Origin: Candidatus Latescibacterota bacterium
GTDB lineage: Bacteria; Latescibacterota; UBA2968; UBA8231
Direction of reading: 5' to 3'
Length of the DNA stretch: 64,000 nucleotides
Assembly (NCBI GenBank): GCA_965219385.1
Contig: CBDCNM010000002.1
Coordinates: 2,986,305 to 3,050,304 of the forward strand
Shown here: positions 22,606 to 53,009 of the stretch, piece by piece
How the letters are laid out: every line of letters starts with the position of its first letter
Position numbering within the stretch: the stretch's first letter is position 1
The notes under the pieces: generated by a model
The model's input: the letters and a program-made list of their open reading frames with translations, nothing else
What the model was told of the DNA's origin: nothing
The model's database searches: none
Position numbers and translations under genes: made by a program

Positions 22606-23541
22606 ATGAAGAAATTAGCTGTTCTACTGGGCATGGGCGCCCTGCTCGTGGGGGGCGCTGCTTTTGCTCAACCGTATGTTGTTTGGGAGCTGCCGCAAAT
22701 GACCGAGCCGCCGGAGCTGGACGGCGTCCGGGGTGAAGCCGAGTGGGCCGGTGCGATCACCGACGAGTGCTCGCCCTCCCAGGTCGAGCGGGATGCCGAT
22801 GCTTACGGCTGGATGGATGAAGCTACTGTCAGAAGCAATCGAAGCCATAATCAGGTCGTGGGTCAGTTAGGCGAGGAGGAGGATGCCAGCGAGGCCGGAA
22901 CCGATGCCGACTACACCTCCAATAATTGGATAGCCTGGGACGAGGACGCGATCTACTACATCCACGAAGTGCGCGACAATTACCACGATACCACCCAGGA
23001 CGCCGGCGGCAACCCCGTGGCCTGGTGGGAACGCGACAGCGTCGGCCTCTACATCGATCTGACGAATTCCAACGTCGGCGGTGGGGGCGAGCTCTACGAG
23101 TCCATGAACGTGGTGAATACCCTGGCCGAGCCGCAGGCGTCCAGCAACATAACCGTCACCCTTATTATCATCGAGGCGGGCGCCCGGGTGGATACCCAGG
23201 AGCCGGATGTCATCGAAGGCGTAGAGTACGGCTACCGCGCTGCCGGCGACGAGTTCGGCGGCGAGGAGGACTACGTCATCGAGGCCATGGTTGAATGGGA
23301 CACCTTCATGCAGTTCAACCTGCCGGATGCGCCTTCGGTGGGCACTGTTATGGGAATGAGCTGGGTCCTGCCGGATCCGGACATCGCTCCGGGCTGGAAC
23401 GGTCAGATGGTGTGCTGGGGGCAGGCGGATTCCCCCGCCACCTACGATGATTTTGTGTTTTCAGACACCCCGGCTGGCCCGGGTGCAGAGACCGCGGCCG
23501 AGCGCGATTCCTGGGGCCGCATCAAGGCCACTTTCAAATAA
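22606..23541 (+). CDS. Secreted acidic CBM9/DOMON-like sugar-binding protein with C-terminal SWGRIK tail
   Basis: Signal peptide MKKLAVLL...AFA; PELDG..GEAEW, AWDEDAIY...VRD, WERDSVGLYID, YVIEAMVEW; ends TAAERDSWGRIKATFK. Confidence 0.7.
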   Translation: MKKLAVLLGMGALLVGGAAFAQPYVVWELPQMTEPPELDGVRGEAEWAGAITDECSPSQVERDADAYGWMDEATVRSNRSHNQVVGQLGEEEDASEAGTDADYTSNNWIAWDEDAIYYIHEVRDNYHDTTQDAGGNPVAWWERDSVGLYIDLTNSNVGGGGELYESMNVVNTLAEPQASSNITVTLIIIEAGARVDTQEPDVIEGVEYGYRAAGDEFGGEEDYVIEAMVEWDTFMQFNLPDAPSVGTVMGMSWVLPDPDIAPGWNGQMVCWGQADSPATYDDFVFSDTPAGPGAETAAERDSWGRIKATFK

Positions 23542-23587
23542 ACCCGAGAGCCTGTAATTCGGGCTTGCGGAATGAGTCTCCATCTTC

Positions 23588-23621: not shown

Positions 23622-23629
23622 AAGTCCTT

Positions 23630-26551
23630 ATGCTCAAAGGATTTTGTCTTCCAGTGGGCGCAATTCAGCATAGATTCAGGGTTGTTGGACCTGCCGGCAG
23701 AGGGCCGGGGAAGATCTGCCTGGCGCTCCTGATCCTTTTCCTCTCTCTGCCTGTCCAGGCCCAGCGCCACCCGGAATCCGCGGGTCCGGTGAAACTGTTC
23801 CGGGAAGAACCCGGGCTGGTGATCAGGCCCTCGTGGCAGCGCCGCCTCAACTTTAATCGCGGGTCGAAGGATCGCTACGAAAGAGGTCGGGCGCGGATGT
23901 TTCTCAATGCAGAGGACAGCGTCCCCTACCTGAACTATGCCGAGAAGATTTACTTCACCTGGAACCGCAGTGGGTCGCGCGGCTCCAGCCCGCGGGTCGG
24001 TCAGCCGTGGGACCGGATGGGCAATTACATCGGGAGCGGATCACGGGCTTTTTCCTGGGAGGAGAGCCGCAGCAACGGTGAGGGAGGGATAAGTTCTATA
24101 GGCGGGGGGAGCAGTCTGCGCATCGGCCACTACAACCACAAGGCCCTGCACTGGAGCGTCACTACCGGTAAGGCTATCCGGAATCGCTTCACCTCCCTTA
24201 CCCTGCACCAGGCCCGCATGAGCGTGGCCCGCATGGATCTCAACTACAAGGACAGGGACCAGGCCACCTTGTTGTTCAACCGAGGCCGCGAGGGGGGGCT
24301 GTTTTCGACCTGGGATTTCAACATCGGAAGAACCGCTGAAACCGCTGAAAACGCGACCATCTTGATGTACGCCGGGCACTGGCAGCACGCCCTGGGCGAT
24401 TTCGGTCATATAGGCGCGACCTTTCTGAACCAATTCCAGTCCCTTCCCGCTTCTCCCAACAGGGATGCCCTGCGCGGCGATCTGTCCTATCCCATGTTGC
24501 CACCGGATATCATCTGGGTGCAGATCAGCGATGATTCGCCCGAGGAGACCCAGGCCAATGCCAGGGTCTACGGGGTGGACCTCATCATCGAGGGGGAACG
24601 CAACGGCGAGCCGGTGCGGCTCACGACCATTGAGGGAGACGAAAACTTCGATGCCAACCTGGCGCGCGGGCGTTCCCGCACCGGGGGGCGCTTTGTACCC
24701 GGAGGGGGCTGGGAGGCGGTGGGTCAGGACGAAGTGCTCTACCAATTTGCCATGCCCCAGGATGTGACGGTGCGCTCGGCCCGCTTCGTGGCCGAGGTCT
24801 CGGACGACTACCGCATCGGGGTGCGGCAACAGCATGTGTTCATCAACCGAGGCCGAGACGGCGAGGAAGATCCGGAGGATTGGCTGTGGCCGGCCACACC
24901 GCTTGCCTCGGAAGGCCGGCGCGCCTTCAAGGGGGAGGTCCTGTTCCTGGACGAAGAGCCTTTTTACACGGTGAGACGGGCCGGGGGCACAGGCAGCAAC
25001 GGCGGCAACCGCCAGAAGGTCGGCTTTGACTACGGCATGCCCACCGGCCAGATCCTGGCGTCGGTGGACTGGAACGCCGACCTGGTGGGCCTGAGCCTGA
25101 GTGGCGAAGCAGTCCAAAACCTGCAGAACTACCTGTATCCCATTGGTGGTTCCAACGAGGGGACGCGCAGCACCCAGAAAGCATGGGCCTGGTGGATCAA
25201 GGCGGTCAAGGATTTTCCCGGCGGACTCCAGGCAGGGGCCGAATTATACCGCCTGGAACCCGACTACAGTGGAGGCTACGACAGCAAGCGCGGCGGTCTG
25301 CCCTTCCATCTCGATTTCCAGGCTCAACCCGGCTCGCCGGTGCAGAGCGTCACTCAGGAGTACTTTCTGATAGAGGACAACGACGACACCGACCAGTGGC
25401 CGGACGAGCACTTCTTCGATCAGCCCAAGGGGGGCTGGCCCGACTCCGAGGTTTACCCGGGACTGGACGAGAACGGCGACAATATCCCGGATATCGACAA
25501 CAACCTCAATTTCATTCCGGACTGGCAGGAGCCTTTCCTGATGTACGATTTGGATCCGGTGGAGTTCGTCTACGGGATCGACTTCAACAACAACGGGTTG
25601 CCGGATTTTCGCGAAAACGACGATCTACCCGACTATCCCTACCGCAGAGACCAGCGGGGTCGCCATCTCTTCGCCCGTTTCAACCGCCTGGGCGGATTGG
25701 GGCACTATGTCTCGCTGGGGTACTACAACCTGGAGGAGATTGCCAATCCGGGCCAGGCCAAAGCGCTTTACCTGCGCTATGCCTACGAGCTCAACCTGCC
25801 GGATTGGGGCCGCATCGGCCTGGATTACGATGTCAAAAAGGTAGAAGACGATATCCGCGACGATTCCTTCATATGGGTCGTGGCCGAGGACGATCGGTCC
25901 AAGGTGAACCTCATGGATGGCCCCCCCGGAATCCCGGGGCGGGAGCGGCCGGCCACGCCCGATCCTCTGTTGATGCGCGACAGTTGGGTGAACACCGTGT
26001 ATCTGAATACCCGGGTCGGGCGTCTGGAAAACCTGAATATTCAAAATTCGTTCCTGCTGATACGCAACAATCAGGCCGAGATCGAACTGGACGATGGCAC
26101 GGGGTTGCTGCAGGAGGAGGACACCCGCTCGCATTTCACCCTGATCAACAAGATTGACTACACCTGGGAAAAAGGCGCCCTGACGGTGCATCCCAAATTC
26201 AAGCACATGCTGCAGCGCGACGGGATGGGCAGCGCCGCAGAGCCAATCCGGTCCTATTCCGACTTTATTCCGATCCTGCGGGCGGATTATGCACTCACCG
26301 AGAAAACCCGTATCCTCTCGGGGATTCAGGGTTTTCCCCTCCTGCCCTACAAACGCTGGGACCGGATCCAGGAAGACGCGACCTTCGCGCAGCGGGACTA
26401 CATGATCGTGTTGAATTCCCGCTCCGAGTACTGGGGGCATGACGCCTCTATTTTCTGGGGCTTTCACGCCACTCGCAAGGAGTACAGCCAGCTGCAAGAA
26501 CGGGATATTGAAGACCACAGGATTTTCATGGATATCGTGGTTGGTTACTAG
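23630..26551 (+). CDS. Large exported protein, predicted outer-membrane beta-barrel with acidic Ca-binding-like repeats (paralog A)
   Basis: Signal ...LLILFLSLPVQA; amphipathic beta pattern; DNDDTDQWPD, DENGDNIPDIDNN, DFNNNG; ends RIFMDIVVGY. Start uncertain. Confidence 0.65.
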   Translation: MLKGFCLPVGAIQHRFRVVGPAGRGPGKICLALLILFLSLPVQAQRHPESAGPVKLFREEPGLVIRPSWQRRLNFNRGSKDRYERGRARMFLNAEDSVPYLNYAEKIYFTWNRSGSRGSSPRVGQPWDRMGNYIGSGSRAFSWEESRSNGEGGISSIGGGSSLRIGHYNHKALHWSVTTGKAIRNRFTSLTLHQARMSVARMDLNYKDRDQATLLFNRGREGGLFSTWDFNIGRTAETAENATILMYAGHWQHALGDFGHIGATFLNQFQSLPASPNRDALRGDLSYPMLPPDIIWVQISDDSPEETQANARVYGVDLIIEGERNGEPVRLTTIEGDENFDANLARGRSRTGGRFVPGGGWEAVGQDEVLYQFAMPQDVTVRSARFVAEVSDDYRIGVRQQHVFINRGRDGEEDPEDWLWPATPLASEGRRAFKGEVLFLDEEPFYTVRRAGGTGSNGGNRQKVGFDYGMPTGQILASVDWNADLVGLSLSGEAVQNLQNYLYPIGGSNEGTRSTQKAWAWWIKAVKDFPGGLQAGAELYRLEPDYSGGYDSKRGGLPFHLDFQAQPGSPVQSVTQEYFLIEDNDDTDQWPDEHFFDQPKGGWPDSEVYPGLDENGDNIPDIDNNLNFIPDWQEPFLMYDLDPVEFVYGIDFNNNGLPDFRENDDLPDYPYRRDQRGRHLFARFNRLGGLGHYVSLGYYNLEEIANPGQAKALYLRYAYELNLPDWGRIGLDYDVKKVEDDIRDDSFIWVVAEDDRSKVNLMDGPPGIPGRERPATPDPLLMRDSWVNTVYLNTRVGRLENLNIQNSFLLIRNNQAEIELDDGTGLLQEEDTRSHFTLINKIDYTWEKGALTVHPKFKHMLQRDGMGSAAEPIRSYSDFIPILRADYALTEKTRILSGIQGFPLLPYKRWDRIQEDATFAQRDYMIVLNSRSEYWGHDASIFWGFHATRKEYSQLQERDIEDHRIFMDIVVGY

Positions 26552-26552: not shown

Positions 26553-27383
26553 ATGAAGAGGAAGAGTTTACTGATCGCCATCGCCTGCGGCAGCGTCCTG
26601 CTCTTGAGCTGGGGTTGTCAGCTGAGGCCCCGGCCCCACCTGATGCACTACATGGACACCGAACCGGTACTGCCGGAAGACGGCCCGTACTACGTCGACC
26701 CGATCGACAGTTCGGTGGTGTGGAGCCAGGAGGGAGTGCAGCTGAAGGTCAAGCCCCTGAGCGACCAGATGCTCAACCAGGAGTACGGTCTGGAGGACAA
26801 TCCTTACACCGTGGGCCACTGGAGGAACGAGGCGGGCTTTACCCCGCCGGCGGGCACGGTTTTCCAGATCACCATCATCAATCGCACCCGTGAACGGGTG
26901 GAAATGGATTTCACCGAAGTGGTCTTGCGCCTCGACAACGGCTACCACTGGCATTTGAGCGGAGGACCGTGGGACGGTCCCTTCGGCCACAGCGATTACC
27001 CCAGGTCGCGCTACCGCATGAAAGATACCGGCGAGGCCACCGGGCCGTGGGACAATGGCTTCCCCAATTCCTACACCTACAAGTACCCGAAATACGGCGA
27101 CCACGACGGCAGATCCCAGTACTACCGCGTGCCCAGAGGACAGATCGGTTCGCGGGCCACACTGAAGCGCGAAAAGCCGGTCCGCAAGGGCCAGAAGCAC
27201 ACCGGCAAGATCTCCTTCGGGTCCCTGCCGGCGAATGTGAAAGAATTTACCCTCGAGGTCAACAACTTCATCCTGGCCTACGACTCCAATGAAGTGGGTT
27301 ACGGCAACCCGGTCGAGTTTACGGACATGGCTTTCCACTTCAAGGTGGACCACGGCATGATGGTGGTGGACAAGGACAAATGA
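26553..27383 (+). CDS. Hypothetical lipoprotein (paralog of 38470-39240)
   Basis: ATG 26553, 1 nt after the barrel A stop; MKRKSLL...LSWGC lipobox. Confidence 0.75.
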   Translation: MKRKSLLIAIACGSVLLLSWGCQLRPRPHLMHYMDTEPVLPEDGPYYVDPIDSSVVWSQEGVQLKVKPLSDQMLNQEYGLEDNPYTVGHWRNEAGFTPPAGTVFQITIINRTRERVEMDFTEVVLRLDNGYHWHLSGGPWDGPFGHSDYPRSRYRMKDTGEATGPWDNGFPNSYTYKYPKYGDHDGRSQYYRVPRGQIGSRATLKREKPVRKGQKHTGKISFGSLPANVKEFTLEVNNFILAYDSNEVGYGNPVEFTDMAFHFKVDHGMMVVDKDK

Positions 27384-28030
27384 AGATAGAGAAGAAATGC
27401 GCCTGGGTAGTGCTGGTCGGGCTGGTCCTGAGTGGATGCCTGGGACTCAAGTACGAGATCCTCAAGCGCACCAGCGTGACCAACCCCCCGGTCGAACGCA
27501 TCAAGGTTTACATCAAGGAGTTCCCGGTGGAAAGCCGGGCCAGTGTGATCGAGCCTCTGGCCGCCGTGGCCTACCAGTATTACGATGGTGCGGAGAGCAA
27601 TCTCAGGTCTTCGGCCTCGGCTCTGGCGGAGATTGCCCGCTCCTCCCGCATAGAGGATTTGTCCGCGGTGCTTTTGCGCGAGTTGCGCCAGGACAAAATC
27701 CGCACCTTTCTGGATGTCGGCAAGATCTCTTCCCTGGACGGGACTCGCCTGGTGGACAATCCCTTCGAGCTGGTCCCTCTCGATGATGCCGAGGCCCAGC
27801 TGGAAATTATGGGCACGGCCAAGATCCACAGCCAGCGGCTCGGGGACCAGTTTTCGCGCAATACCTCCAGGGTGGATATCGAGGTAGGGGTCAGAGACCT
27901 AAAGACCGACAAGGTGGTCATACAGCCCCTGTTTCCCGCGGGCATCAACATGGTCTACAATTCGCGGGCGCTGGAGGAGGCCATGGCCGTGACCGTGGCC
28001 ACGGTGCTGACCAGAAAAACGCCGTTTTAA
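27380..28030 (+). CDS. Hypothetical lipoprotein
   Basis: VLSGC lipobox; ATGA overlap with the upstream gene. Confidence 0.7.
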   Translation: MKIEKKCAWVVLVGLVLSGCLGLKYEILKRTSVTNPPVERIKVYIKEFPVESRASVIEPLAAVAYQYYDGAESNLRSSASALAEIARSSRIEDLSAVLLRELRQDKIRTFLDVGKISSLDGTRLVDNPFELVPLDDAEAQLEIMGTAKIHSQRLGDQFSRNTSRVDIEVGVRDLKTDKVVIQPLFPAGINMVYNSRALEEAMAVTVATVLTRKTPF

Positions 28031-28035: not shown

Positions 28036-29691
28036 TTGGTGAGATCTACAAGCCTTCTCTGCCTGGTGGTGGTATTGGGTGGGGTAGCCGGGATCCGGGC
28101 TGAAATGCAGCGGTGGGTTGCCCGGGATACCGATGAGTTCGAGAGGGCCACCCTGGAGGGGGTTCAGGTGCATCCCGACAGCCTGGTGATCCTGGCTCAA
28201 CTGAGCGGGAAGGAAAACTTGGCTCTCGGGCGTCCGGCCGTGGATGATTTCGACCGGGAGGTGCCGCTGACTGACGGCAGCATTGACGCGCTGGGGAGCG
28301 AATGGAATTCCGCTACCCCCCAGGTCTTCGGGCGCAGCTTTATGGTGGACCTGGGGCTGGACCGGGCGATCCACCGGGTGCGGGTTCTGGCGGGAGAAAC
28401 CGCGGTGTCGAGTCGGCCCGAATACTTTATGCGCGGTTACCGGATTGAAGCCGCCACCCAACTAAAGCCCGATATCTGGCGCATCCTGGCCGAGCAGAGA
28501 GAAAATTTCGTTTTGAACGTGGATACGCAAAAAGACAGCACCTGGTTGAAGGTGGACCCTGATGGAGCGGCGATTCCCTCCATTGGGCGGTTCGTGCGCC
28601 TCACCCTGATCCGCCAGGACCGCAGCAACTGGGTGGTGCTGGGGGAGCTGGAGGTCTTTGGCAGAGGGTACGGCAGCCAGGGCTCGATCGCGGGTGAATT
28701 CGCCGGCCCAGAGCCGGTAAACATCGGGCGGATCCGCTGGCGGAGTGAGACCCCGTCCCAGACCTGGATGCGGATGCAATTCCGTGGTCTGGCCGCGGAT
28801 GAGGCCGGTCCCGAGTGGGATGAACTACCGGTGTACCAGACTGCGGAGGTGCTGTTTCCCGGGGCCGAGCCGGTGGCGCGGTTCCACTACCGGGCCTTGC
28901 TGGAATCCACCGCGCCTTTTGCTACCCCCGCGTTCAGGGCCATCGAGATCGACTACGATCCAGTCCTGGTGGCCCGGGAAGTGCTCGGCTCGGTGGAGGC
29001 CGATGCCGTCGGAATAGGAGAGCGGACAACCCTGAAATACAGGGCCGCCCTCCAGGTAGAGCCGGATGATTACGGCATCGACCTGATCAGTCTGGAGGGC
29101 GCCCGGGTAGAGGTGGAAGAAATCCGGTTCGAGGGGGCCATGGCGTCTTTTGAGGAAGGGTTGGATCCGGAGGGGGGCACCATCATTGAACTCGCCCCGG
29201 CTGACCGGATTGAGGCTTCGGGGGCGTTGGAGATTGCGGGCCGGGCGCTGTTTTTGCAGGACCAGACCGCCCTGGTGCTGCGGGTGGGGAGTCGGGTGCA
29301 GCAAGAGCGGGACGGGTACATCAACTGGCAGAACGCCCGCGAAGACCCGGCCTCGACCTGGACCGTGCGGGCGGGGGGAGCGCTGGGACTGCTGAGCAAG
29401 GTGGAATTCGGTCCGCGACCGTTCTCGCCCCTGGGTGCCGAGCTGGAGTTCCGCTTTGTGGTGGGTCACCTCCGGGACCAGACCGAAGTGGCCGTGCGCA
29501 TCTTTACCATCGAGGGGCGCAGGGTGCGCAAACTAGCTCGGATGGGCGGGACCGGCGAGTACCGCATGGCCTGGGACGGCCGCGACCAGCAGAACCGGAT
29601 AGTGGCGCCGGGACTCTACCTGTTCGAGGTCCGCGTCGAGGCCGGGGATTCTACCAGTAGCCGGCGAGGCGCCTTTGTGGTGGCGTATTAG
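28036..29691 (+). CDS. Secreted discoidin/F5-8-like protein with C-terminal FlgD-Ig (T9SS-CTD-like) domain
   Basis: NLALGRP...VDLG...RFVRL...LGELEVFG; C-terminus PRPFSP...VRIFTIEGRRVRKL...WDGRDQQNRIVAPGLY. Confidence 0.75.
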   Translation: MVRSTSLLCLVVVLGGVAGIRAEMQRWVARDTDEFERATLEGVQVHPDSLVILAQLSGKENLALGRPAVDDFDREVPLTDGSIDALGSEWNSATPQVFGRSFMVDLGLDRAIHRVRVLAGETAVSSRPEYFMRGYRIEAATQLKPDIWRILAEQRENFVLNVDTQKDSTWLKVDPDGAAIPSIGRFVRLTLIRQDRSNWVVLGELEVFGRGYGSQGSIAGEFAGPEPVNIGRIRWRSETPSQTWMRMQFRGLAADEAGPEWDELPVYQTAEVLFPGAEPVARFHYRALLESTAPFATPAFRAIEIDYDPVLVAREVLGSVEADAVGIGERTTLKYRAALQVEPDDYGIDLISLEGARVEVEEIRFEGAMASFEEGLDPEGGTIIELAPADRIEASGALEIAGRALFLQDQTALVLRVGSRVQQERDGYINWQNAREDPASTWTVRAGGALGLLSKVEFGPRPFSPLGAELEFRFVVGHLRDQTEVAVRIFTIEGRRVRKLARMGGTGEYRMAWDGRDQQNRIVAPGLYLFEVRVEAGDSTSSRRGAFVVAY

Positions 29692-29712
29692 CGCCTTTGT
29701 GGTGGCGTATTA
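29669..29712. repeat. Perfect 22-bp tandem duplication at a gene junction
   Basis: GCGCCTTTGTGGTGGCGTATTA at 29669-29690 and 29691-29712. Confidence 0.95.
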
Positions 29713-30572
29713 AAGGAGTATTGCTGAGTGGAGTGGGGGTGTTCTGCTGGCTCTTGCCGGTACAGGCGGCCTTCGAGGTTACCGGCGAAGGGGCTCGTTC
29801 GACCGCTCTGGCAGGGGCCTTTACCGCAATCGGTGGGGATCCCGAAGCGGTCTGGTTCAATCCGGCCGGCAGCGCCCGGGTGCAAAAGAAAGGGGTCGGC
29901 ACCACCCATGCCTTGCTCTATCCCGGGCTGGACGAGAGTCCGACCCTGAACGCCCTGGCCGCGAATTTCCCGCTGCGCGGAGGGGGCGCCCAGGTGGGGC
30001 TCTCGGTCCTGGGCTTTGAGGATTGGAGCGAACAGGTGCTGGTCGCCGGGTACGGTCGGCCCCTGCACCCGCGGGTATCCGTGGGCGTCAGCATCGCCAG
30101 CAGGGGCTGGCAGGTAGGTCGTCTGTCCCGTCGTACCTTGGGGCTGGACCTGGGCGGGGTCTACGAGGTAGGCTGGGTGCTGCCCCGGGCCTATATGAGG
30201 TTGGCGCTGGTACTGAAAAGTCTCAACCGGCCCAATGTTTCGGCGGCCGGGCATGGGGCCGGCAGGACCCTGGTGGGAGTTGTGGTGGGGGCTTCGATCG
30301 AGGATGCGCACCAGAGGATCCTGGTGGATCTGGAGCGCGACGGGGCTTACACCCGGATCCGGGTCGGCTACGAAAACCGGCCGGCCGGCTGGGGCGGCAC
30401 CAGGTTTCGCCTGGGCGCGGACGCTCTGTTCGCTCCCTGGGAGAACCGCGAAATGGATGTGGGATTGGGACACAACTGGCGGCAGTGGCACTTTGATTAC
30501 GCCTATTCCTATCCTCTGAGACTCGAGGGCCTGGGAGGGATCCACCGGGTGAGTATCAGATGGATGCAGTAG
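29697..30572 (+). CDS. PorV/PorQ (FadL-like) outer-membrane barrel
   Basis: GEGARSTALAGAFTAIGGDPEAVWFNPAG N-terminal motif; LGLDLG; FDYAY...LGGIHRVSI. Confidence 0.7.
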   Translation: MWWRIKGVLLSGVGVFCWLLPVQAAFEVTGEGARSTALAGAFTAIGGDPEAVWFNPAGSARVQKKGVGTTHALLYPGLDESPTLNALAANFPLRGGGAQVGLSVLGFEDWSEQVLVAGYGRPLHPRVSVGVSIASRGWQVGRLSRRTLGLDLGGVYEVGWVLPRAYMRLALVLKSLNRPNVSAAGHGAGRTLVGVVVGASIEDAHQRILVDLERDGAYTRIRVGYENRPAGWGGTRFRLGADALFAPWENREMDVGLGHNWRQWHFDYAYSYPLRLEGLGGIHRVSIRWMQ

Positions 30573-33500
30573 TGAATGAGGTTTTAACGAGGATGAGCGC
30601 AATGAGTGGAAAAATCCGCGGTAGGAACGCATTGCTGGTTTTGCTGCTGGGTCTGCTGGTCTGGGGAGGGAGCGGGGTGGATATTCAGGCGCAGACGCAG
30701 CTGAAAAACCGGGACTTTTTGCACCTCGGCGATCCCGAGCCCTATCTGAACTACGGTCGCACCATGTACGATGCCTATCCCGATGTCCTGACCTCGCGCA
30801 ATCAGTACGATCGCCTGGGCAATTTCCTGATGCGGGGATACAACATGTTCAGGCTCGACGATGTGCGTCCGGGCTTCAGCGAGATCTCGCGCCACCGGCT
30901 TTACACCCAGTGGTTCAACTCCATGATCATCACCACCGATACCTACCGCGGGTGGAACTACTCCCTGACCGTGGGGGATGAGATCCGCACCAAGCTCTCG
31001 GATATGACCGTGAAGCATCCGCGCTGGGACGGCATCCGCTTCGACGGGGCTGCTTCCGACAATCAATTCACCTTCATGTTTACCCGGGGCGAACAGACCG
31101 CTTCGCTCCCGAAGTTCTCTACTTTTGAATCGGGCCGGGAGCGGTCTTCGGTCGTCGCCTTTGGAGGACACTGGCAGACCGAGCTGGGGGATATCCTGGA
31201 GCTGGGAGCGACCTATTACAACCAGCACATGGCGGACAGCTTCAACCCGGACGGCTCCTTTCTGCGGGGGGATACCCCCTATTCCATCCTGCCGCCCACC
31301 TTCATCACCGTGGCCATTGAGGACGACTCTCCCGAGGAGCAGACCCAGGGCGCCCGGGTCTATCGGGTGGACATGTTTGTGGTGGGCGAGTCCCTGGGTC
31401 AGGAGGTGCGTTTTACCACGGTGCAGGGCGTCGAGGGCTATGAGTTCCGTCCCGATCTGAAGCAGCCGGCTGTGGGCGGGCGCCGGATCCCGGGCGAGGA
31501 CGGGTGGCAGGTCGCCGGCGACGATAGGGTCCTCTTCGAGTTCCAGATGCCCGAATACGTCCTGCCCGGGGCCGAAGACTACGCTGCAAACCCGGATGTG
31601 CCCCTGCAGGGCATCACCATAAAATCCGTGCGCTTCCAGGCCGAGGTGGAGGGGGATTACCGCATCGGGGTGCGCCAGAAGCATCTGTTCTTCGACGAGA
31701 AGGAATACCTGAAGAACATCGATAAGGGCTACAGTCCCAGCGCGGATACCGAACGAGCCAGAGAGCGCTACGTAAATCCCTTCACCGGCCTCAAAGGCGG
31801 CGACGGCGGCGACGACGAGGAGGACGATGATGCGGCCCTGCTGACCCCGGTCGAAGCCGCGGCGGCCGGGTACGATGTGTTCCGGAAGTGGCCGGTGCCC
31901 CCGGACCCGGCGGTCAACCCCTTCCAGCTCTACAAGTGGGACCAAGCCCCCGAAAACATATTCTACACCGTCAAACGTGCCAATGGCAAGAACCAGAGCC
32001 GGGGGGTGGTGGAATTTGACTACGGCATCCCCACCGGACAGTCTATATACGGGCTGGACTGGAAGCTCAAGCTCAAGGACATGACCGTAAAGGGCGCGTT
32101 TGTCACCAACCCGCAGCACTTCATTTTCCCGGCGGGGCGCAATGCTGGAGAGCGCTCTGCAAAACGCACCTGGGCTTATTACCTCACGGTCGACCGGCAA
32201 CTGGGACTCTCGATGCAGGTGGGGGGCGAATTCTTCGACTTCGATCCGGATTTCAGCGGTAATTACGACAGCCGGCGGGGAGGCGTCCCCTTCTTCACCG
32301 ACCGGGCGCGCAGCGGCGGCAATGTGTCGGTAATGGAGGAATTCCGCCTCATGGCGGACAACGACGACAACGACCAGTTTCCCGATGATAGTCTGCCGGA
32401 AAATCCCAGCTCGTTTCTAACGGATTCGGGCATTTATCCCGGACTGGACGAGAACGGGGACCTGGTGCCGGACAGCGACCAGAACTTCAACGGTATTCCC
32501 GACTGGACGGAACCCCTTCTGTTCTACGACGCCGATCCCCCGGAATTCGTCTACGGCATTGACCTGAACAACAACGGGGTGGTGGACTACCGCGAGAACG
32601 ACGATCATCCCGATTATCCCTACCGCCGGGACCGCCGGGGCGTGAATCTCTTCGTCACCAGGGACGGTCTGGGTGGTCTGGGCAAATGGGTCTCGCTGGG
32701 AGGCTACCGGATAAAGGAAAACGCCGGGGGCAACAAGGCCAGGGCCCTGTACCTGCGCTGGGAGTACTACAAGGCCTCGCCGATCTTCGGCGCCATTCGC
32801 ATCAACGACGACATCAAGCTGGTTGAGGACGAGATCCGCGACGATGTCTACATCTGGAAAGATTATCCCAATGACCTCAGGGTGCCCCATCCGAGCATCG
32901 AGGGCGAGGATATCCGCAAGATCGACCTGAACAGCCAGCTCTTTGCCCCCCCTCCGGATCCGCTGCTGATGAAGAACAGCCTAGTCAACACCCTGTTCCT
33001 GGAATCGCGCTTCAGCCAGATCCTCGACTTCAACATCGTCAACAACGTGCAGTACATCCGCAACAGCCAGCGCCAGGACGAGTTCGACGACGGCAGCATG
33101 CAGGAGAGCGATGTGCGCACCATCTGGACCCTGGTCAACAAGGTGGATTATACCCTGCGCCTGGGTGATTCGTTCAAGATCCGGCCCATGTTCAAGCACC
33201 TGCTCTTCCGCGAGACATCGGACAATCACGAAAAGGCGATCAAGGAAGCCACGGGGGAGAAAAAGGCCATCCGCTCCACCTCGGTCTACACCCCGATCCT
33301 GCGCACCGACTACCACTTTACCCCCAAGTTCTTCATCCAACTGGGTTTCCAGGGGTTTCCCTTCTGGCGCTATCGCTTTAAAGACCGGGTGGACGAAATC
33401 AATGATTTCAAACAGTGGGACCTAGTGGTGATGATGACCAACCGATCCGACTACTGGGGCTACAGCATTGCCAGCCAGTTCGGGTACGCGCGCACCAACC

Positions 33501-33580
33501 GGAAATTCGACGACGAGGCCCAGGGGGCGCTCAGCGAACGCAATTCGCGCATCTTCTTTGACCTGGTAGGCGGGTATTGA
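30560..33580 (+). CDS. Large exported protein, predicted outer-membrane beta-barrel with acidic Ca-binding-like repeats (paralog B)
   Basis: Collinear motifs with paralog A; ends RIFFDLVGGY. True start probably 30593 or 30602. Confidence 0.65.
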   Translation: MDAVVNEVLTRMSAMSGKIRGRNALLVLLLGLLVWGGSGVDIQAQTQLKNRDFLHLGDPEPYLNYGRTMYDAYPDVLTSRNQYDRLGNFLMRGYNMFRLDDVRPGFSEISRHRLYTQWFNSMIITTDTYRGWNYSLTVGDEIRTKLSDMTVKHPRWDGIRFDGAASDNQFTFMFTRGEQTASLPKFSTFESGRERSSVVAFGGHWQTELGDILELGATYYNQHMADSFNPDGSFLRGDTPYSILPPTFITVAIEDDSPEEQTQGARVYRVDMFVVGESLGQEVRFTTVQGVEGYEFRPDLKQPAVGGRRIPGEDGWQVAGDDRVLFEFQMPEYVLPGAEDYAANPDVPLQGITIKSVRFQAEVEGDYRIGVRQKHLFFDEKEYLKNIDKGYSPSADTERARERYVNPFTGLKGGDGGDDEEDDDAALLTPVEAAAAGYDVFRKWPVPPDPAVNPFQLYKWDQAPENIFYTVKRANGKNQSRGVVEFDYGIPTGQSIYGLDWKLKLKDMTVKGAFVTNPQHFIFPAGRNAGERSAKRTWAYYLTVDRQLGLSMQVGGEFFDFDPDFSGNYDSRRGGVPFFTDRARSGGNVSVMEEFRLMADNDDNDQFPDDSLPENPSSFLTDSGIYPGLDENGDLVPDSDQNFNGIPDWTEPLLFYDADPPEFVYGIDLNNNGVVDYRENDDHPDYPYRRDRRGVNLFVTRDGLGGLGKWVSLGGYRIKENAGGNKARALYLRWEYYKASPIFGAIRINDDIKLVEDEIRDDVYIWKDYPNDLRVPHPSIEGEDIRKIDLNSQLFAPPPDPLLMKNSLVNTLFLESRFSQILDFNIVNNVQYIRNSQRQDEFDDGSMQESDVRTIWTLVNKVDYTLRLGDSFKIRPMFKHLLFRETSDNHEKAIKEATGEKKAIRSTSVYTPILRTDYHFTPKFFIQLGFQGFPFWRYRFKDRVDEINDFKQWDLVVMMTNRSDYWGYSIASQFGYARTNRKFDDEAQGALSERNSRIFFDLVGGY

Positions 33581-39306: not shown

Positions 39307-41208
39307 ATGGATGGATGTCGGCAAATGAGAAGCGTAAGTGAACTGTTCGCTACTTGGCGCAATCGGCGGGCAGCCGTGCGGGGATTGTGGCTCTGGCGTT
39401 TGGTGAGGCCCAGGGAGCTCTTACCCCCTTCCACCCCCCCAGGCAGTCCCGAGTCCCAGATCACCCTTTTCCCAGCCCAGCCCTCCACTGCCCCCTCCCT
39501 GCTGCCGCGCCCGCTCGCAGCCCCCACCGCCCTGCCGGCAAAATCCCCTCCCGGCCTTGAGGGCCGTATATCGACGGTATCTCGCGAAGTACTGATATTC
39601 GCCGCGGGACTGCTGCTCTGCGGATGTTCGGGGCCTCCTGAAGATCCCTCTGTGCTGGCAAAGGTGGGAGAGATCCGCATTAAAGCCGCGGACCTGCGGG
39701 CCTTTCAGGAGAAACTCCCGCCCAGCTATCGGCGCTCGAAGGTGGAGAAGGAGGCCCGGCGGGCGGATTTGCAGACCCTGATTGACCGGCGCCTCATGGA
39801 CCTGGACGCCCAGTCCCGGGAGCTGGATGGGGATGCACAGGTGCTGGAGAGTTTAAGGGAGCGCGAGGACGAGAAACTGGTTGATGAGATGATCAATCGC
39901 CAGGTCCGCGCCCGGGTTGCCTTCTCCGAGGAGGATATAGTACGGGAATACCAGGAGAAGGGCTGGGACGAGCAGGTCGAGACCCTGGAGTTTTTTGTGC
40001 CGACCAGGGAAAAGGCCGAGGTGGTGGTGGAACGTCTGGACAACGGGGTTGATTTCAATGAGGTGGCCCGTTCATACTCGGTGGATCGAGTCCTGAAGGT
40101 GCCTACCGGCAATCCCCAGAGTTTTACCTACTCTCCGTACGATCAACCCCGTGCGGTGGTCGAGGCGGTCTTTTCATTGTCCCAGGGCGGCACCACCGAA
40201 CCTGTTCCCCTGATGGATGGTTTTGTTTTCGCCAGGGTGGTGGAACGCCGCAAGGTGGAACTGGACCAGGTGCGGCACAAGGTCGAGAAAGAACTGGTAC
40301 GCAAAAACACAAAGTTATACCGGTCGCTGTACCTCATCGAACTGCGCAAGCAGTTCAATCTGGAGTTCAATCAGGACGGCATGGATCTGGTGGTCCAGGT
40401 TTTGCGGGATAAGGTTTCGCTGTCCGCGGCTCAGCGCGACACGGCGGTATATACCTACGAAGGAGGCGTCCTGAAGGTGGAGGAGGTTCTGGAGGCGGTG
40501 AAGAGGGTGAAGAGGGAATGGCCTCGGATCGAAGAAGGATACGTGATAGCATACCTCAAGGAAAACACCCTGCCCGACCGGTTGATGGCGCTGGATGGGC
40601 GCAACCGGGGAGTGGATCGAGAGGAGGCCTTCCAGCGGTGGCGGGAGCAAGAAAAAAAGGATCTCGTGGTCGCCCGTCTGCGAGCCCTGGTTCTGGAAAA
40701 AAAAGTAAAAATAACCCGGGAAGATCTGGAAGCCTATTACGAGGAGCACAAGTCCAGGTTCACCAATCCCGACCGCGCCCGAGTCCTGGAACTGCTGGTA
40801 AAAGACAGGGCCCGGGCTCAGGATCTGAGGCGACGGATCGAGGAAGGGGAGGATATGGCCGCCCTGATCCAGGAGCACAGCATCCGCGAGAACCCCAAAG
40901 ATGGAAACCTGCGGGTTTCCACCCCGCAGATCCCCTTTTATGGGGAGGAGTGGGTCAACGCGGTGATGAATGCCCCTTTGAACCAGGTGCAGGGGCCGGT
41001 CCAGACCAGGGGCGGGTACTCCATTTTCAAGCTGCTCGAGCGCTATCCCGAGGAGTTGTTCCCGCTGCAGGGGAAGGTGCTCAGATTGGTTCGCAATCGG
41101 GTGAAAGAGGAAAAGGAGCGGGAGATCTTCAATCAGTACCTGTGGGATCTGCGCCAAAGATATGCCAATGGAGTCGAGGTCTACCAAGAGCACCTGGAAC
41201 AACTCTGA
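39307..41208 (+). CDS. SurA/PrsA-like peptidyl-prolyl isomerase lipoprotein (two parvulin-like regions)
   Basis: LLCGC lipobox, VLAKVG..I, GVDFNEVARSYS, GEDMAALIQEHS, GPVQTRGGYSIFK. Start uncertain because of a Pro-rich leader. Confidence 0.75.
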   Translation: MDGCRQMRSVSELFATWRNRRAAVRGLWLWRLVRPRELLPPSTPPGSPESQITLFPAQPSTAPSLLPRPLAAPTALPAKSPPGLEGRISTVSREVLIFAAGLLLCGCSGPPEDPSVLAKVGEIRIKAADLRAFQEKLPPSYRRSKVEKEARRADLQTLIDRRLMDLDAQSRELDGDAQVLESLREREDEKLVDEMINRQVRARVAFSEEDIVREYQEKGWDEQVETLEFFVPTREKAEVVVERLDNGVDFNEVARSYSVDRVLKVPTGNPQSFTYSPYDQPRAVVEAVFSLSQGGTTEPVPLMDGFVFARVVERRKVELDQVRHKVEKELVRKNTKLYRSLYLIELRKQFNLEFNQDGMDLVVQVLRDKVSLSAAQRDTAVYTYEGGVLKVEEVLEAVKRVKREWPRIEEGYVIAYLKENTLPDRLMALDGRNRGVDREEAFQRWREQEKKDLVVARLRALVLEKKVKITREDLEAYYEEHKSRFTNPDRARVLELLVKDRARAQDLRRRIEEGEDMAALIQEHSIRENPKDGNLRVSTPQIPFYGEEWVNAVMNAPLNQVQGPVQTRGGYSIFKLLERYPEELFPLQGKVLRLVRNRVKEEKEREIFNQYLWDLRQRYANGVEVYQEHLEQL

Positions 41209-49437: not shown

Positions 49438-51087
49438 ATGCGACAATTCAGGGTTGATAGAGCGGTAGGGGTACTGTGCTTGTGGGCCTGGGGTGCAGCT
49501 GGTGCTCCGGCTTCACAAGTCCAGTTCGTGGACGTGGCGCTTGAGATGGGGGTTGACTTCGTGCACGAAAACGGGATCAGCAGTGAAAAAAGACTGCCGG
49601 AGACCTATGGCTCCGGCAGTGCTTTTTTTGATTACGACGGGGACGGGGATCTGGATCTCTACCTGGTCAACAGTGGGGACCTGGTCGAGGGACGCGGAAC
49701 GGCCTGGAACCGGCTCTACCGCAACCAAGGCCGGAGTTTTGCAGAGGTTACCGAAGAGGCCGGTGTCCCGGGCAGGGGGTACGGCATGGGCGTGGTGGCG
49801 GCAGATGCTGACGGAGACGGGGACGCGGAGATCTACCTGACCAGCTGGGGCGAGGATATCTTCTACCGCAACGAAGGCAATGGCCGCTTCCGGGATTTCA
49901 CCCTTCCGGCCGGCTTGGGCAACCCCCAGTGGGGCGCCAGCGCCGCCTTTCTGGACTATGACCGGGACGGGGATCTGGACCTGTTCGTGGCCAATTACGT
50001 GGATTTCCAGGTCGGCGAACAGCCCTGGTGCGGCCGCAGCGACCTGGATCTGCGATTCTACTGCGATCCCCGGCAGTTCGAGTCCACAGTGGACCGGCTC
50101 ATGCGCAACAATGGGGATGGAAGCTTTAGCGATGTGGGTCAGGAGGCCGGCATTGTCCACGCCGGCAATGGCCTGGGGGTGATCTGCGGGGATTTTGACG
50201 GGGATGGGGACGCGGATGTGTACGTGGCCAATGACATGACCCCCAATTTCCTCTACGAGAATATGGGGGGCGGTCGCTTCCAGGAAAACGCACTGCTCGC
50301 GGGTGCAGCGCTCAGCGCCGACGGAGTGACCCAGGCCGGCATGGGGGTGGATGCCGGAGATTTCGACCGGGACGGGGACCAGGATCTGTTTGTGACCAAT
50401 TACCAGCTTGAGAACAACGACCTGTATCGCAACGACGGTGCCTATTTTTCCGAGGTGGGTTTCCGGGCGGGTGTGGGCGAGATCAGCCTGAACTACCTGG
50501 GCTTCGGAGCCGGGTTTTTCGACTACGACAACGATGGCTGGCTGGATTTGTTTGTGGCCAACGGGCACGTCCACGACAACATAGAAGCCTACGACAAGCT
50601 GGTGAGATACCCTCAGAAGGCCCAGGTCTTCCACAACGACGGCAAGGGGCGCTACGTCGAACGCACCCAGGCCCTGGGTCCGGGCCTGGCCGTATCCTAC
50701 GTGGGCCGCGGCTCGTCCTTCGGGGACTTTGACCAGGATGGCGATCTGGATATTGCGCTGGTGAGTTCCGGACGCCGGGCGGCCCTGCTGCAAAACCAGG
50801 GCGGCAATGCCCGCCACTGGTTGCAGGTGGAGCTGGAGGGCACCCGCGGCAACCGGGACGGGATCGGGGCAAAGGTGTACCTGGAGGCCGGTTCCCTGCG
50901 CAGCTTCCAGGAGGTCAGGGCGGGTTCGGGCTACCTTTCCTCCAGCCAGCTGGCCCCGTTCTTCGGGCTGGGGGATCACACCCGGGTGGACCGGCTGGAG
51001 ATCCACTGGCCCTCGGGTGTAGAACAGGTGCTCGAAGAGATCCCCGCCGACCAGAGGCTCTACATCGTGGAACCGTCGGGACCTTGA
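49438..51087 (+). CDS. CRTAC1-family (FG-GAP + ASPIC/UnbV) secreted protein
   Basis: LPETYGSGSAFFDYDGDGDLDL; YCDP; AGMGV; GSGYLSS...FFGLG...IHWPSG. Confidence 0.9.
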   Translation: MRQFRVDRAVGVLCLWAWGAAGAPASQVQFVDVALEMGVDFVHENGISSEKRLPETYGSGSAFFDYDGDGDLDLYLVNSGDLVEGRGTAWNRLYRNQGRSFAEVTEEAGVPGRGYGMGVVAADADGDGDAEIYLTSWGEDIFYRNEGNGRFRDFTLPAGLGNPQWGASAAFLDYDRDGDLDLFVANYVDFQVGEQPWCGRSDLDLRFYCDPRQFESTVDRLMRNNGDGSFSDVGQEAGIVHAGNGLGVICGDFDGDGDADVYVANDMTPNFLYENMGGGRFQENALLAGAALSADGVTQAGMGVDAGDFDRDGDQDLFVTNYQLENNDLYRNDGAYFSEVGFRAGVGEISLNYLGFGAGFFDYDNDGWLDLFVANGHVHDNIEAYDKLVRYPQKAQVFHNDGKGRYVERTQALGPGLAVSYVGRGSSFGDFDQDGDLDIALVSSGRRAALLQNQGGNARHWLQVELEGTRGNRDGIGAKVYLEAGSLRSFQEVRAGSGYLSSSQLAPFFGLGDHTRVDRLEIHWPSGVEQVLEEIPADQRLYIVEPSGP

Positions 51088-53009
51088 GTGAGCGGGGTAT
51101 AACACTGCGGTCCCTGCTCGCAGGGGCGATCATGGCGGCCCTGATCGGCGGGGGCACGGCGTACGAGAACCTGCTGATCTCGGGTTCCACCATGAACTTC
51201 GACTACAGCATGGGCGCGGCCATCTTCGCCTTTGCCCTGTTCGTGCTGCTGCTCAACCCGGCCCTGCTCCGGCCCGCCTGGGCTTTCAGGCGCACCGAGC
51301 AGGCCACCCTCTACATCATGGCCATGGTGGCCTGCGTGCTGCCCACCAATGCCCTGGTGGGCCAGCTGATCCCGGCGCTTTCCGGTGGCATCTACTACGC
51401 CTCGGTGGAGAACAACTGGCTCGAATCCATAATCCCCTATATCGAGCCCTGGCTAATGGTCGCCGACCCGCAGGGCATCAGGGGGTTCTACGAGGGCCTG
51501 TCCGGCCAGGCCATTCCGTGGGGGATATGGTTGCGCCCCCTGCTCTGTTGGTCCCTGGCCCTGGCGGGTTTTTTCGGCACTGTCATCGCACTGATGGTGC
51601 TGCTGCGCAAGCAGTGGGTGATCAACGAGCGCCTGCTGTATCCTCTGGTGCAGGTGCCGATTGCCATGATCGGCGAGGAAGAGGCCGAACAAAAGGCCTA
51701 CCCACCCCTGTTCAGGCGGTGGTTGTTCTGGGGCGGGGTGCTGATCCCCGGGGTGATGTACAGCCTGAAATCCCTGCACTTCTACGATCCTATATTTCCG
51801 ATCGGGCTGCCGACCTTCATCCACGTTCCCTTTGCCAACAACGCCGTGGTCATACCCTTTGGGATCAACTACGCGGGCATTGGTTTCGGCTATCTCCTGA
51901 CCACGAAATTGAGTTTCTCGATATGGATCATGGCGCTGCTGACTATCGTGGAGGAAGTGGTCCTGATGCGGATCGGCTTGTTCAGCAGCGAGCGTCTGAT
52001 ATACAACTACTCCCCGAGCGTGTATCCCTCCTACCAGGGCGCCGGCGCTCTGCTGGTGTTCGCCCTGGCCGTGCTGTGGACCGGAAGGCGCCACCTGCGC
52101 CAGGTACTCGAGGCGGCCTGGAAAGGAGAGGGGGATAGCGGAGAGATGCTGTCGTATCGCGCCACGTGCCTGCTGTTGCTGGGCAGTCTGCTGCTGCTGG
52201 GCGGCTGGCTGGTGGCAGCCGGAGCGAGCAGCTGGCTGGTCGTGGTCTTCCTGCCGATCTTTTTCCTGATGATGCTCGGCCTCACCCGGATCGTCGCCGA
52301 GGGCGGATTGGCCGTGAGCCGGTTGCCCATCCTGCCCAACGATCTGGTGGTCGGGGCTATTGGCAGCAGCCATCTCGGAGCCATCAATCTCGGGGTACTC
52401 AGTATGACCTTTCCCCTGGGCAGCGAAATGCGCACCTCGTTGATGTCGGCTCTGGCCCACGGGCTGAAGCTGGCGGAGATCCACGTGCGGACCCAGCGTC
52501 GTCGCCTGTTCGCAGGGGTGATTCTGGCCATCGTCCTGTCGACCGGATGTGCCGTCTTCACCATGCTGTTCATCGGCTACCACTACGGGGCGGTCAACCT
52601 GAGTGCCCACTGGTTTTTCGGCACGGCGGCGGGCGGACGCATCTTCGATTTTATCTCCTACCACCTCGAACAGAACGCCGGACCCCGGTGGGACAGTCTG
52701 GGGTTTGCCGGGCTGGGGGCCGGGATTCAATTGCTGTTGATGCTGGCGCACCAGCGGCTGCTCTGGTGGCCGATACACCCGCTGAGCTTTCCGATCGGCG
52801 CGATCTGGTGCACCCACCAGGTGATGGCGAGCATGTTGCTGGCCTGGGTGGCCAAGGTCACGACCCTGCACTACGGTGGGGTGCGGCTCTACAATGCCAC
52901 CAAGCCGTTGTTTCTGGGGCTGATCCTGGGGCAGTACCTCACCGGAGGGCTGTGGCTGGTGATCGATGGGTTCACGGGTGTGCAGGCCAACTACTTGTTT
53001 TTCTGGTAG
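51084..53009 (+). CDS. DUF6785/DUF6784-like membrane protein, divergent copy 5
   Basis: LRKQWVINERLLYPL, WWPIHPL, KPLFLGLILG; start overlaps the CRTAC1 stop. Confidence 0.72.
   Translation: MSERGITLRSLLAGAIMAALIGGGTAYENLLISGSTMNFDYSMGAAIFAFALFVLLLNPALLRPAWAFRRTEQATLYIMAMVACVLPTNALVGQLIPALSGGIYYASVENNWLESIIPYIEPWLMVADPQGIRGFYEGLSGQAIPWGIWLRPLLCWSLALAGFFGTVIALMVLLRKQWVINERLLYPLVQVPIAMIGEEEAEQKAYPPLFRRWLFWGGVLIPGVMYSLKSLHFYDPIFPIGLPTFIHVPFANNAVVIPFGINYAGIGFGYLLTTKLSFSIWIMALLTIVEEVVLMRIGLFSSERLIYNYSPSVYPSYQGAGALLVFALAVLWTGRRHLRQVLEAAWKGEGDSGEMLSYRATCLLLLGSLLLLGGWLVAAGASSWLVVVFLPIFFLMMLGLTRIVAEGGLAVSRLPILPNDLVVGAIGSSHLGAINLGVLSMTFPLGSEMRTSLMSALAHGLKLAEIHVRTQRRRLFAGVILAIVLSTGCAVFTMLFIGYHYGAVNLSAHWFFGTAAGGRIFDFISYHLEQNAGPRWDSLGFAGLGAGIQLLLMLAHQRLLWWPIHPLSFPIGAIWCTHQVMASMLLAWVAKVTTLHYGGVRLYNATKPLFLGLILGQYLTGGLWLVIDGFTGVQANYLFFW

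Follow-up and report, generated by a model that had tools for sequence, protein, structure and literature searches.

Latescibacterota are widespread uncultured bacteria. Inspection of a 64,000-nucleotide stretch of one of their genomes (Candidatus Latescibacterota bacterium, GenBank assembly GCA_965219385.1, contig CBDCNM010000002.1, positions 2,986,305 to 3,050,304; 'the window', to which unprefixed coordinates refer) allowed us to describe a cluster of 19 genes, g1 to g19, of which the operon g1-g12 (22606-39240) and the g13 gene that follows it are best explained as encoding one envelope-spanning apparatus specific to Latescibacterota and close relatives. The source genome measures 5.81 Mb in two contigs (C1 and C2) and is 93.96% complete. 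A first-pass annotation, made from the sequence alone, had listed 19 co-oriented open reading frames (ORFs) at 22606-53009; all of them are present there on the + strand, and every domain that it called was recovered with Pfam or NCBIfam, some only weakly. From g1 to g12 the intergenic gaps are 2-88 nt, and ORFs abut or overlap. Some listed ORFs start too early, with probable starts at 26553 for g3, 30602 for g7, 47393 for g17 and 49438 for g18.

The operon begins with a secreted CBM9-like protein of 311 aa (g1, 22606..23541), which has a signal peptide, lacks both a lipobox and a type IX secretion system (T9SS)-type C-terminal domain (CTD), and passes the cut-off of Pfam CBM9_1 (E 5.4e-6; 26.9 bits against 23.4). 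It is followed by the first of two giant outer-membrane beta-barrels, paralogue B2 (g2, 23630..26551; 973 aa). The second, paralogue B7 (g7, 30602..33580), has 992 aa from its probable start, a form that is present in the database, whereas the listed ORF has 1006 aa. Between the barrels lie two lipoproteins, g3 (26553..27383; listed ORF start 26439) and g4 (27380..28030; 216 aa), a secreted protein that combines a weak discoidin-like domain with a probable CTD of T9SS type (g5, 28036..29691), and a small, divergent PorV/PorQ-like barrel (g6, 29697..30572). Downstream of B7 come a tetratricopeptide repeat (TPR) protein of 1090 aa with one N-terminal hydrophobic anchor (g8, 33591..36863), an ExbB/TolQ-type proton channel (g9, 36911..37576), two ExbD/TolR paralogues (g10, 37586..38002; g11, 38009..38443) and a third lipoprotein, L12 (g12, 38470..39240). 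A terminator-like hairpin with a 12-bp stem and a following T run (39270..39301) lies 3' of g12; sites of this kind are no more numerous in the region as a whole than expected from shuffled sequence, and the hairpin is therefore a hint only. The g13 ORF (39307..41208) encodes a SurA/PrsA-like parvulin peptidyl-prolyl isomerase (PPIase) lipoprotein, and the earlier PPIase call is upheld by a Rotamase_2 match at E 9.7e-23. Its start codon is uncertain because a genome-wide dispersed repeat overlaps the ORF over its first ~100 codons and inflates the 5' end. This repeat, of ~250 bp at 39350-39600 between g12 and g13, has 97 further BLASTN pieces across contig C2, with 69-91% identity among those printed.

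The giant barrels g2 and g7 are paralogues, 38% identical over about 890 residues, and neither matches a Pfam or NCBIfam family. An AlphaFold2 model based on an alignment of 55 homologues (A1) has a predicted local distance difference test (pLDDT) score of 79.7 and a predicted template modeling score of 0.78, and is built largely of long strands that run from residue ~66 as far as the C-terminus. A mixed insert occupies residues ~240-470, and a low-confidence segment at ~580-675 contains motifs rich in Asp and Asn that are invariant in A1 and that, from their likeness to similar motifs, may be calcium-binding. N-terminally the barrels have an extension, likewise conserved, with an aromatic-x-Asn-Tyr motif. 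The model contains no globular N-terminal domain and is hence plug-less. The identity and the model together bear out the call of two paralogous barrels of ~1000 aa. The first-pass annotation had left room for ordinary TonB-dependent receptors (TBDTs) or for proteins that are not barrels at all. The model is a barrel, and ordinary TBDT identity is ruled out by its lack of an N-terminal globule, by the absence of any Plug or TonB_dep_Rec match in g2 or g7 at E 0.01 (the same Plug model gives 24 matches elsewhere in the genome), and by hhalign, in which A1 scored probabilities of 0.1% and 0.2% against two alignments of TBDTs from the same genome, compared with 100% (E 4.6e-73) for the control of one TBDT set against the other.

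Structure searches with the giant barrel yielded unspecific barrel matches only. Foldseek returned Deinococcus SlpA, Shewanella MtrB and LptD as best matches (E 1.5e-10 to 4e-6), although with TM scores of at most 0.23. In VIA-align, ordinary porins reached Z 12-14 over ~220-260 residues, and SlpA did no better (Z 11.8, root-mean-square deviation (rmsd) 9.0, 433 residues aligned). SprA gave one of the longest aligned stretches (Z 11.1, rmsd 11.4, 454 residues), and FecA aligned over 382 residues (Z 9.9, rmsd 11.7). Because these matches are generic, we conclude that the fold is that of a large barrel without a close solved relative. A sequence search of g7 against Protein Data Bank (PDB) chains gave nothing meaningful, and Pfam SlpA_C matched homologues of the giant barrel only weakly and below its cut-off (E 7.5e-6). 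The giant barrels have neither an S-layer homology (SLH) nor a coiled-coil part and, at the sequence level, no membership of the families of the best Foldseek matches. In MtrB and LptD the barrel encloses a partner protein, and the lipoproteins of the cluster may be accommodated likewise. DUF5916, a barrel family known in fusion with CBM9, was considered and rejected, as only two fragments match it elsewhere in the genome and none in the giant barrels.

Among 1.84 billion proteins, 818 representative clusters belong to the giant-barrel family at E 0.001, a number that falls to 553 at 1e-10 and to 260 at 1e-30, with homologues labelled Latescibacterota, Handelsmanbacteria and Gemmatimonadota. 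It occurs in 94 of 151 sampled genomes of the phylum and in all 63 other genomes of the source's own family, and in none of the 30 and 19 genomes sampled from two other families of the same class. When up to five candidates per genome were scored, only 37 of the family's 64 genomes showed an orthologue of B7 at nearly full score. In the source genome alone there are 20 barrel genes, which are distributed over about 11 loci and frequently stand in tandem.

The three lipoproteins proposed earlier are g3, g4 and g12, each with a lipobox visible in its sequence and none with a Pfam or NCBIfam family. g3 and g12 are paralogues (32% identical), and the lipobox Cys is invariant in the alignment of their family, L3/L12 (A2). 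A profile of this family found nothing meaningful among PDB chains. The AlphaFold2 model of L12 (pLDDT 87.3) is an Ig-like beta-sandwich with helices, of DUF4352/YcdA type, and its best fold match by VIA is B. subtilis YcdA (4r4g; Z 8.7, rmsd 4.1, 125 residues aligned), followed by YjhA (Z 7.7) and MPT63 (Z 7.4). For g12, Atlas returned only unnamed lipoprotein clusters, with DUF4352 at 0.81 as a lead that later agreed with the fold match. As modelled, L12 does not look like TonB. In the particular case of g4, which occurs only at the core locus, orthologues in 24 loci are 44-51% identical, and its profile found no meaningful match among PDB chains.

At the cell surface, the CBM9-like call for g1 stands above its cut-off, and the CRTAC1-like call for g18, described below with the transporters, was recovered as well. 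The discoidin and FlgD-Ig calls for g5 were recovered, but both are weak: F5_F8_type_C_2 (galactose-binding/discoidin) at E 0.013, and FlgD_ig at the C-terminus with 25.5 bits against a cut-off of 27. The PorU C-terminal region matches g5 at E 8e-7; among g5 paralogues, F5_F8_type_C is present and FlgD_ig, CHU_C and Por_Secre_tail pass their cut-offs. Likewise, the PorV/PorQ-like assignment of g6 was recovered only at 37 bits with NF033709 (PorV_fam; cut-off 90), the weakest of 14 PorV-family matches in the genome. A predicted complex of the g5 CTD (residues 440-551) with g6 scored 0.86, compared with 0.02 for the best of three controls, and the mark that it passed is reached by 116 of 157 solved complexes and by 2 of 215 mismatched pairs. 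Between runs, at least 92% of the contacts are shared, and partner pLDDT is no lower than 80.

The ExbB-ExbD-ExbD motor is confirmed, as g9 (PF01618, E 8.6e-29, 100.3 bits), g10 (PF02472, E 5.2e-25, 88.4 bits) and g11 (PF02472, E 1.1e-28, 100.3 bits) all lie above Pfam gathering scores. g10 and g11 are 36% identical, and g10 has a transmembrane Asp. The equivalog models TolQ, ExbB, TolR and ExbD all score these proteins below their cut-offs, although for g9 the TolQ models give better scores than the ExbB models do. The 1090-aa protein g8 is indeed a TPR protein, with TPR_6 and YbgF-type repeats, and eight of its stretches match the YbgF/CpoB model TIGR02795. Its scores with PorW/SprE (113 bits, cut-off 250) and GltC (38 bits, cut-off 450) are far below the cut-offs, and GltE is matched only by the downstream TPR protein g21, again below cut-off. 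Apart from the one at locus L049, for which the called ORF start appears mistaken, every TPR8-type homologue listed opens directly with ~20 hydrophobic residues, after which comes a conserved stretch; we infer that the hydrophobic segment is an uncleaved membrane anchor.

The first-pass annotation recognised no TonB, plug receptor, TolA/TolB or SprA. This holds for the cluster, in which Pfam and NCBIfam detect none of them, but not for the genome, where TonB, Plug and SprA are encoded elsewhere. The sole clear TonB_C match adjoins another ExbB-ExbD-ExbD set (C2:13082-15205), against four or five ExbB genes in total, and SprA_N is matched only at C2:2512260-2513564. No GldK or GldN was recognised in the cluster, a GldM_1st search of the genome gave no match (a search with no positive control), and TolB_N was not matched in the available 93.96% of the genome, Pal/OmpA not having been searched for.

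A comparison of gene neighbourhoods, as the first-pass annotation had suggested, showed that homologues of these genes co-occur in fixed order in other genomes. One genome per species was scanned, yielding 597 confirmed stretches of which 61 loci were kept, and window proteins were compared with locus ORFs by BLASTP. The full order CBM9-B2-L3-L4-CTD-PorV-B7-TPR-ExbB-ExbD-ExbD-L12-PPIase is present in 16 of the 61 loci at 30-75% identity, and loci on shorter contigs are colinear with this 13-gene order as far as the contig ends. ExbB-ExbD-ExbD lies between the TPR and L12 genes in 21 of 23 orthologous loci that span the interval. Paralogous loci follow a reduced pattern of a CTD protein, one to three barrels, a TPR gene and L12; where a TPR8-type gene is present (28 loci), an L12-type gene accompanies it in 23. 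ExbB stands beside the TPR8-type gene on the same strand in four of these 28 (L049, L056, L057 and L058), with ExbD detected only in L056 and L058. The TPR gene thus stays with barrels and L12 where the motor is absent and has been co-duplicated with them, while CTD proteins lie directly upstream of barrels in nearly every locus. The cluster is therefore a conserved unit, as had been proposed, and we found no published description of it in the literature searched, which also held no paper naming DUF6785.

The same families gather within the source genome, for which loci within 20 kb of a barrel were counted and compared with 5000 position permutations. DUF6785 genes lie near a barrel in 10 of 16 independent loci (expected 1.2; none of the 5000 permutations reached the observed value), as do PPIases in 6 of 7 loci, CTD proteins in 11 of 13 and L3/L12 lipoproteins in 5 of 6. 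CRTAC1-like genes are strongly co-localised as well, and weaker co-localisation is seen for TPR8 (19 of 5000 permutations reach the observed value) and ExbB (170 of 5000). Parts of the core recur at three further loci of this genome: C2:3924000-3952000 carries three barrels, TPR, DUF5683-like and DUF4159 genes, L12, ExbB-ExbD-ExbD and two DUF6785 genes; C2:3546000-3565999 carries L12, PorV-like, TPR, ExbB, ExbD and DUF4159 genes; and C1:576000-606000 carries four barrels, TPR, DUF4159 and L12-like genes and a GH42-like protein. Catabolic-type genes are found in some barrel loci (GH42-like, a GH20b fragment, GFO/IDH/MocA oxidoreductases, PfkB and an FGE-sulfatase domain). With the order kept in other genomes and the families co-localised in this one, the arrangement is far beyond chance.

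Some genes recur in barrel loci outside the 13-gene order. DUF4159 proteins lie between or beside TPR, L12 and ExbBD genes in three paralogous loci (L001:16034-18270; L003:9875-11215, - strand; L005:2850-4070), one of which also has a DUF5683-like protein, and neither family is present in the cluster of the window. Two other barrel loci share a repeated block downstream of a CTD protein and barrel (L083:10344-13473 and L084:11772-15878), in which a Peptidase_A24-like membrane protein of 356-357 aa is flanked by family-less proteins of ~310-320 aa, two in L083 and three in L084.

Behind g13 lie four tandem polytopic membrane proteins of the DUF6785/DUF6784 type, g14-g17 (41162-43129, 43098-45140, 45270-47330 and 47393-49399), then the CRTAC1-like protein g18 (49438..51087; listed ORF start 49063) with FG-GAP and UnbV_ASPIC domains and 22 paralogues in the genome, and a fifth DUF6785/DUF6784 protein, g19 (51084..53009). 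All five score above gathering level, with PF20581 (DUF6785) at E 1e-106 to 1e-111 (8.1e-111 for g19) and PF20580 (DUF6784) at 6e-20 to 6e-25. The earlier description of five paralogous DUF6785-like transporters is right as to family, but they are not part of the conserved operon. Four related complete genomes each have a single g14 orthologue (66% identical) a few kb downstream; in L067, the sole relative whose ORFs were read, it sits behind two opposite-strand genes. The array of five genes, into which a CRTAC1-like gene is inserted, therefore represents a local, lineage-specific expansion. In two loci a DUF6785 gene directly follows the PPIase gene. A profile of eight DUF6785/DUF6784 members gave no match in the PDB; among Atlas clusters that bear a name, the closest, at 0.78-0.80, are 'peptide transporter' and an OPT cluster in which 31% of members carry PF03169. 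As a separate observation, DUF6785 has 26 matches in the source genome and 39-57 in each of five related genomes (G001-G005), and appears to be among the most expanded membrane-protein families of the lineage. A DUF6785 gene in the source genome adjoins a 1535-aa protein with Peptidase_M28, MacB_PCD and FtsX domains (L079:4344-8951, - strand), and one in a relative adjoins a 1535-aa ORF whose domains were not scanned (L067:8780-13387, + strand).

There are several possible explanations for what this apparatus does. Fixed order, tight spacing and repeated co-duplication of barrel, TPR and L12 genes are the reasons for treating it as one apparatus, and the function we favour, although we hold it at somewhat less than an even chance, is energised capture and uptake of nutrients across the outer membrane with no TonB in the cluster. 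Uptake is suggested by barrels that have diversified in the manner of SusC genes beside variable surface binding proteins, by the clustering of inner-membrane importers and CRTAC1-like genes with barrels, and by the catabolic genes in some barrel loci. CRTAC1-like genes are frequent in the polysaccharide utilisation loci (PULs) of Bacteroidota. On the model of Ton and Tol motors, ExbB would form a pentamer-type proton channel with two different ExbD subunits in the inner membrane. g8, with its N-terminal helix in the inner membrane, would serve as a periplasmic scaffold and possibly as force transducer in TonB's place. In the outer membrane, the two plug-less barrels would be accompanied by the beta-sandwich lipoproteins g3 and g12 and by g4, and at the surface the discoidin-like g5 would be retained through its CTD docked on g6, as modelled, with g1 as a further sugar-binding-type protein. 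A large or complex nutrient would be bound and then passed through the giant barrels at the expense of energy, in a counterpart of SusCD/TonB-dependent 'utilisomes', and DUF6785/DUF6784 transporters nearby may carry the products across the inner membrane. The gene content, paralogy, barrel fold, lack of plug and TBDT homology, synteny and co-localisation on which this picture is built are observed; of the interactions in it, the g5-g6 pair has been modelled, and we infer the others along with the direction of transport and the substrate.

The resemblance to Ton/SusCD systems of Bacteroidota PULs is one of layout. Both have an ExbB and ExbD motor in the cluster, a large outer-membrane barrel beside surface binding proteins and lipoproteins, many diversified paralogous loci per genome, and inner-membrane importers and CRTAC1-like genes nearby. 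They differ in that the present cluster has no TonB, plug or TonB_dep_Rec and its barrels have no detectable homology to TBDTs of the same genome, in that the place of a SusD lipoprotein as surface partner is probably taken by a protein with a CTD of T9SS type on a PorV-like barrel, and in that a 1090-aa anchored TPR protein is found where TonB would be. A bolder version of the uptake proposal, which we regard as doubtful, is that anchored g8 and L12 replace TonB in linking an ExbB-ExbD1-ExbD2 motor to the plug-less barrels, as a third kind of proton-driven outer-membrane transport beside Ton and T9SS. It would serve Latescibacterota as their principal diversified gate for nutrients, and CTD proteins delivered by the T9SS would, on PorV-like barrels, take the part of SusD. 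The available part of the Latescibacteria genome paper predicts non-specific porins and a few TonB-dependent receptors and does not mention the cluster (PMC4454575). If the giant barrels do form an energised gate that needs neither TonB nor a plug, this would alter how nutrient uptake is read from these genomes and would provide a new means by which proton motive force is coupled to the outer membrane.

Several findings weigh against uptake by a self-contained apparatus. The core operon contains no substrate, enzyme or regulator that points to uptake, and classic carbohydrate-active enzymes are scarce in eight other barrel loci that were scanned. The DUF6785 array lies outside the conserved operon, behind the hairpin 3' of g12, and its OPT-like nature follows from weak leads only, namely the Atlas neighbours, with no PDB profile match. 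The genome has a canonical TonB system, its 24 Plug matches and SprA; TonB, TBDTs and SprA, being encoded elsewhere, could therefore act in trans. The motor genes are not inside the cluster in two of the 23 orthologous loci (L007 and L010) and occur in few of the paralogous ones, so coupling may be in trans or absent. Among the homologues listed, the TPR8-type anchor shows no conserved polar motif like that of TonB and TolA. The g5-g6 score may reflect likeness to PorV-CTD complexes that are already solved. Contigs from four RNA-library runs of one study, labelled sponge metagenome (X11-X14), count as a hint in favour of the apparatus, since they are identical or nearly identical to g1, to parts of g2 and g5, and to g8-g13, and in all four runs a contig begins at 22502, ~100 nt 5' of the g1 start, which may be a transcript 5' end; but neither transcription itself nor a transcript start or relative levels can be established from such contigs. 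A ranking of expression from gaps between these contigs, or from the higher contig depth over g1, was considered and is not usable.

The main rival, which we think unlikely, is a surface-display, adhesion or gliding-type machine in which the motor and TPR protein move, load or turn over the PorV-like barrel and its CTD protein, with the giant barrels as platform or translocon. This reading is patterned on two known machines, the extended translocon of the T9SS and the Agl-Glt core complex. The part classes here mirror the SprA-PorV-PPI-SkpA-SprE translocon (8gl8, found by fold search) together with GldLM/PorLM: a giant barrel, a PorV-like barrel predicted to bind a CTD, a PPIase, a TPR protein and a proton-driven motor of the MotA/ExbB class. 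The length of the SprA alignment, the position of CTD genes directly upstream of barrels and the predicted docking of the g5 CTD on g6 point the same way. However, the barrels here have ~1000 aa rather than ~2400 aa and lack SprA_N, true SprA is encoded elsewhere, and the structural matches of the giant barrel are all generic, with Foldseek TM scores as low as noted and VIA Z values of 11-14 shared with porins. In addition, the motor is ExbB/ExbD rather than GldL/GldM, the PPIase is parvulin/SurA-like, GldK and GldN were not recognised in the cluster, and the co-localisation of inner-membrane importers with barrels fits uptake better. The Myxococcus xanthus Agl-Glt core complex (aglR, aglQ, aglS, gltD, gltE, gltG and gltC), as described in the accessible part of its report, likewise links one TolQ-like and two TolR-like genes to a TPR protein of ~1190 aa (within a ~1100-1200-aa range that also takes in g8) and to outer-membrane components, and has been duplicated into paralogous clusters of differing function (PMC3169522). 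Against this likeness, the present cluster has no counterpart of the TonB-like GltG, NCBIfam scores for GltC, GltE and PorW/SprE are far below cut-offs, and the giant barrels, L3/L12 lipoproteins and PorV-CTD pair are not Glt parts.

The cluster could also be a mosaic of separate neighbouring units, a view to which we give rather little credence: porin-like barrels with lipoproteins, a TPR-ExbB-ExbD-ExbD set of the type found in the superphylum of Fibrobacteres, Chlorobi and Bacteroidetes (FCB) that serves TBDTs through a TonB encoded elsewhere, and a transporter array. The single clear TonB_C match against four or five ExbB genes, the two loci with no motor in the cluster and the hairpin between g12 and g13 speak for this view. 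A comparable set, likened here by description, is FSU_2396-2403 of Fibrobacter succinogenes, where the consulted part of the report places OmpA, two TPR proteins, ExbB, two ExbD and a TonB-domain protein and ties them by proteomics to polymer degradation and uptake (PMC6851124). It differs from the present cluster in including TonB and OmpA, and that part mentions no giant barrel. Separate units are harder to reconcile with a gene order fixed across genera at no more than 40-75% protein identity and with a TPR gene that keeps to barrels and L12 even without the motor and is duplicated together with them. A stand-in for Tol-Pal in envelope integrity, in which lipoproteins and barrels would tether or remodel the outer membrane alongside a TolQ/TolR-like motor and a TPR protein resembling CpoB/YbgF, is in our view very improbable. 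The eight TIGR02795 stretches of g8, the higher TolQ than ExbB score of g9, the lack of a TolB_N match and the invariant Asp/Asn-rich barrel segment, if it does bind calcium, argue for it, yet all Tol equivalog scores fall below their cut-offs, about 20 barrel paralogues in about 11 loci with variable surface proteins suggest diversified specificity rather than housekeeping, and the near-full-score B7 orthologue is limited to 37 of the 64 genomes of the family, as scored above. Under the rival readings too, the constant association of a giant TPR protein with a motor of the ExbBD class and a PorV-CTD pairing marks a putative machine of interest.

Scans of regulatory and defence features added little to this picture. 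Rfam gave no match at gathering scores anywhere in the window, so no riboswitch hints at a substrate. A scan for sigma-70-type promoters did not rise above shuffled sequences, and PADLOC defence models did not match the barrels or lipoproteins.

The surroundings of the cluster contain further genes of note. Divergently upstream, at 19341-22193 (- strand), lies a 950-aa fusion in which a membrane part resembling the major facilitator superfamily is joined to a spermine/spermidine synthase domain and to TPR repeats. This synthase domain recurs in a protein of 1030 aa that adjoins another barrel locus (L074:5368-8460, - strand). The first 6000 nucleotides of the window (1-6000) have a GC content of 46-51%, compared with ~58-64% in the remainder, and may be foreign or otherwise distinct DNA. 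Downstream, g22 (55326-57590) encodes 754 aa with no family, and a second copy at G000:C2:1783898-1785816, made up of several overlapping ORFs with 45-73% identity, looks like a broken paralogue.

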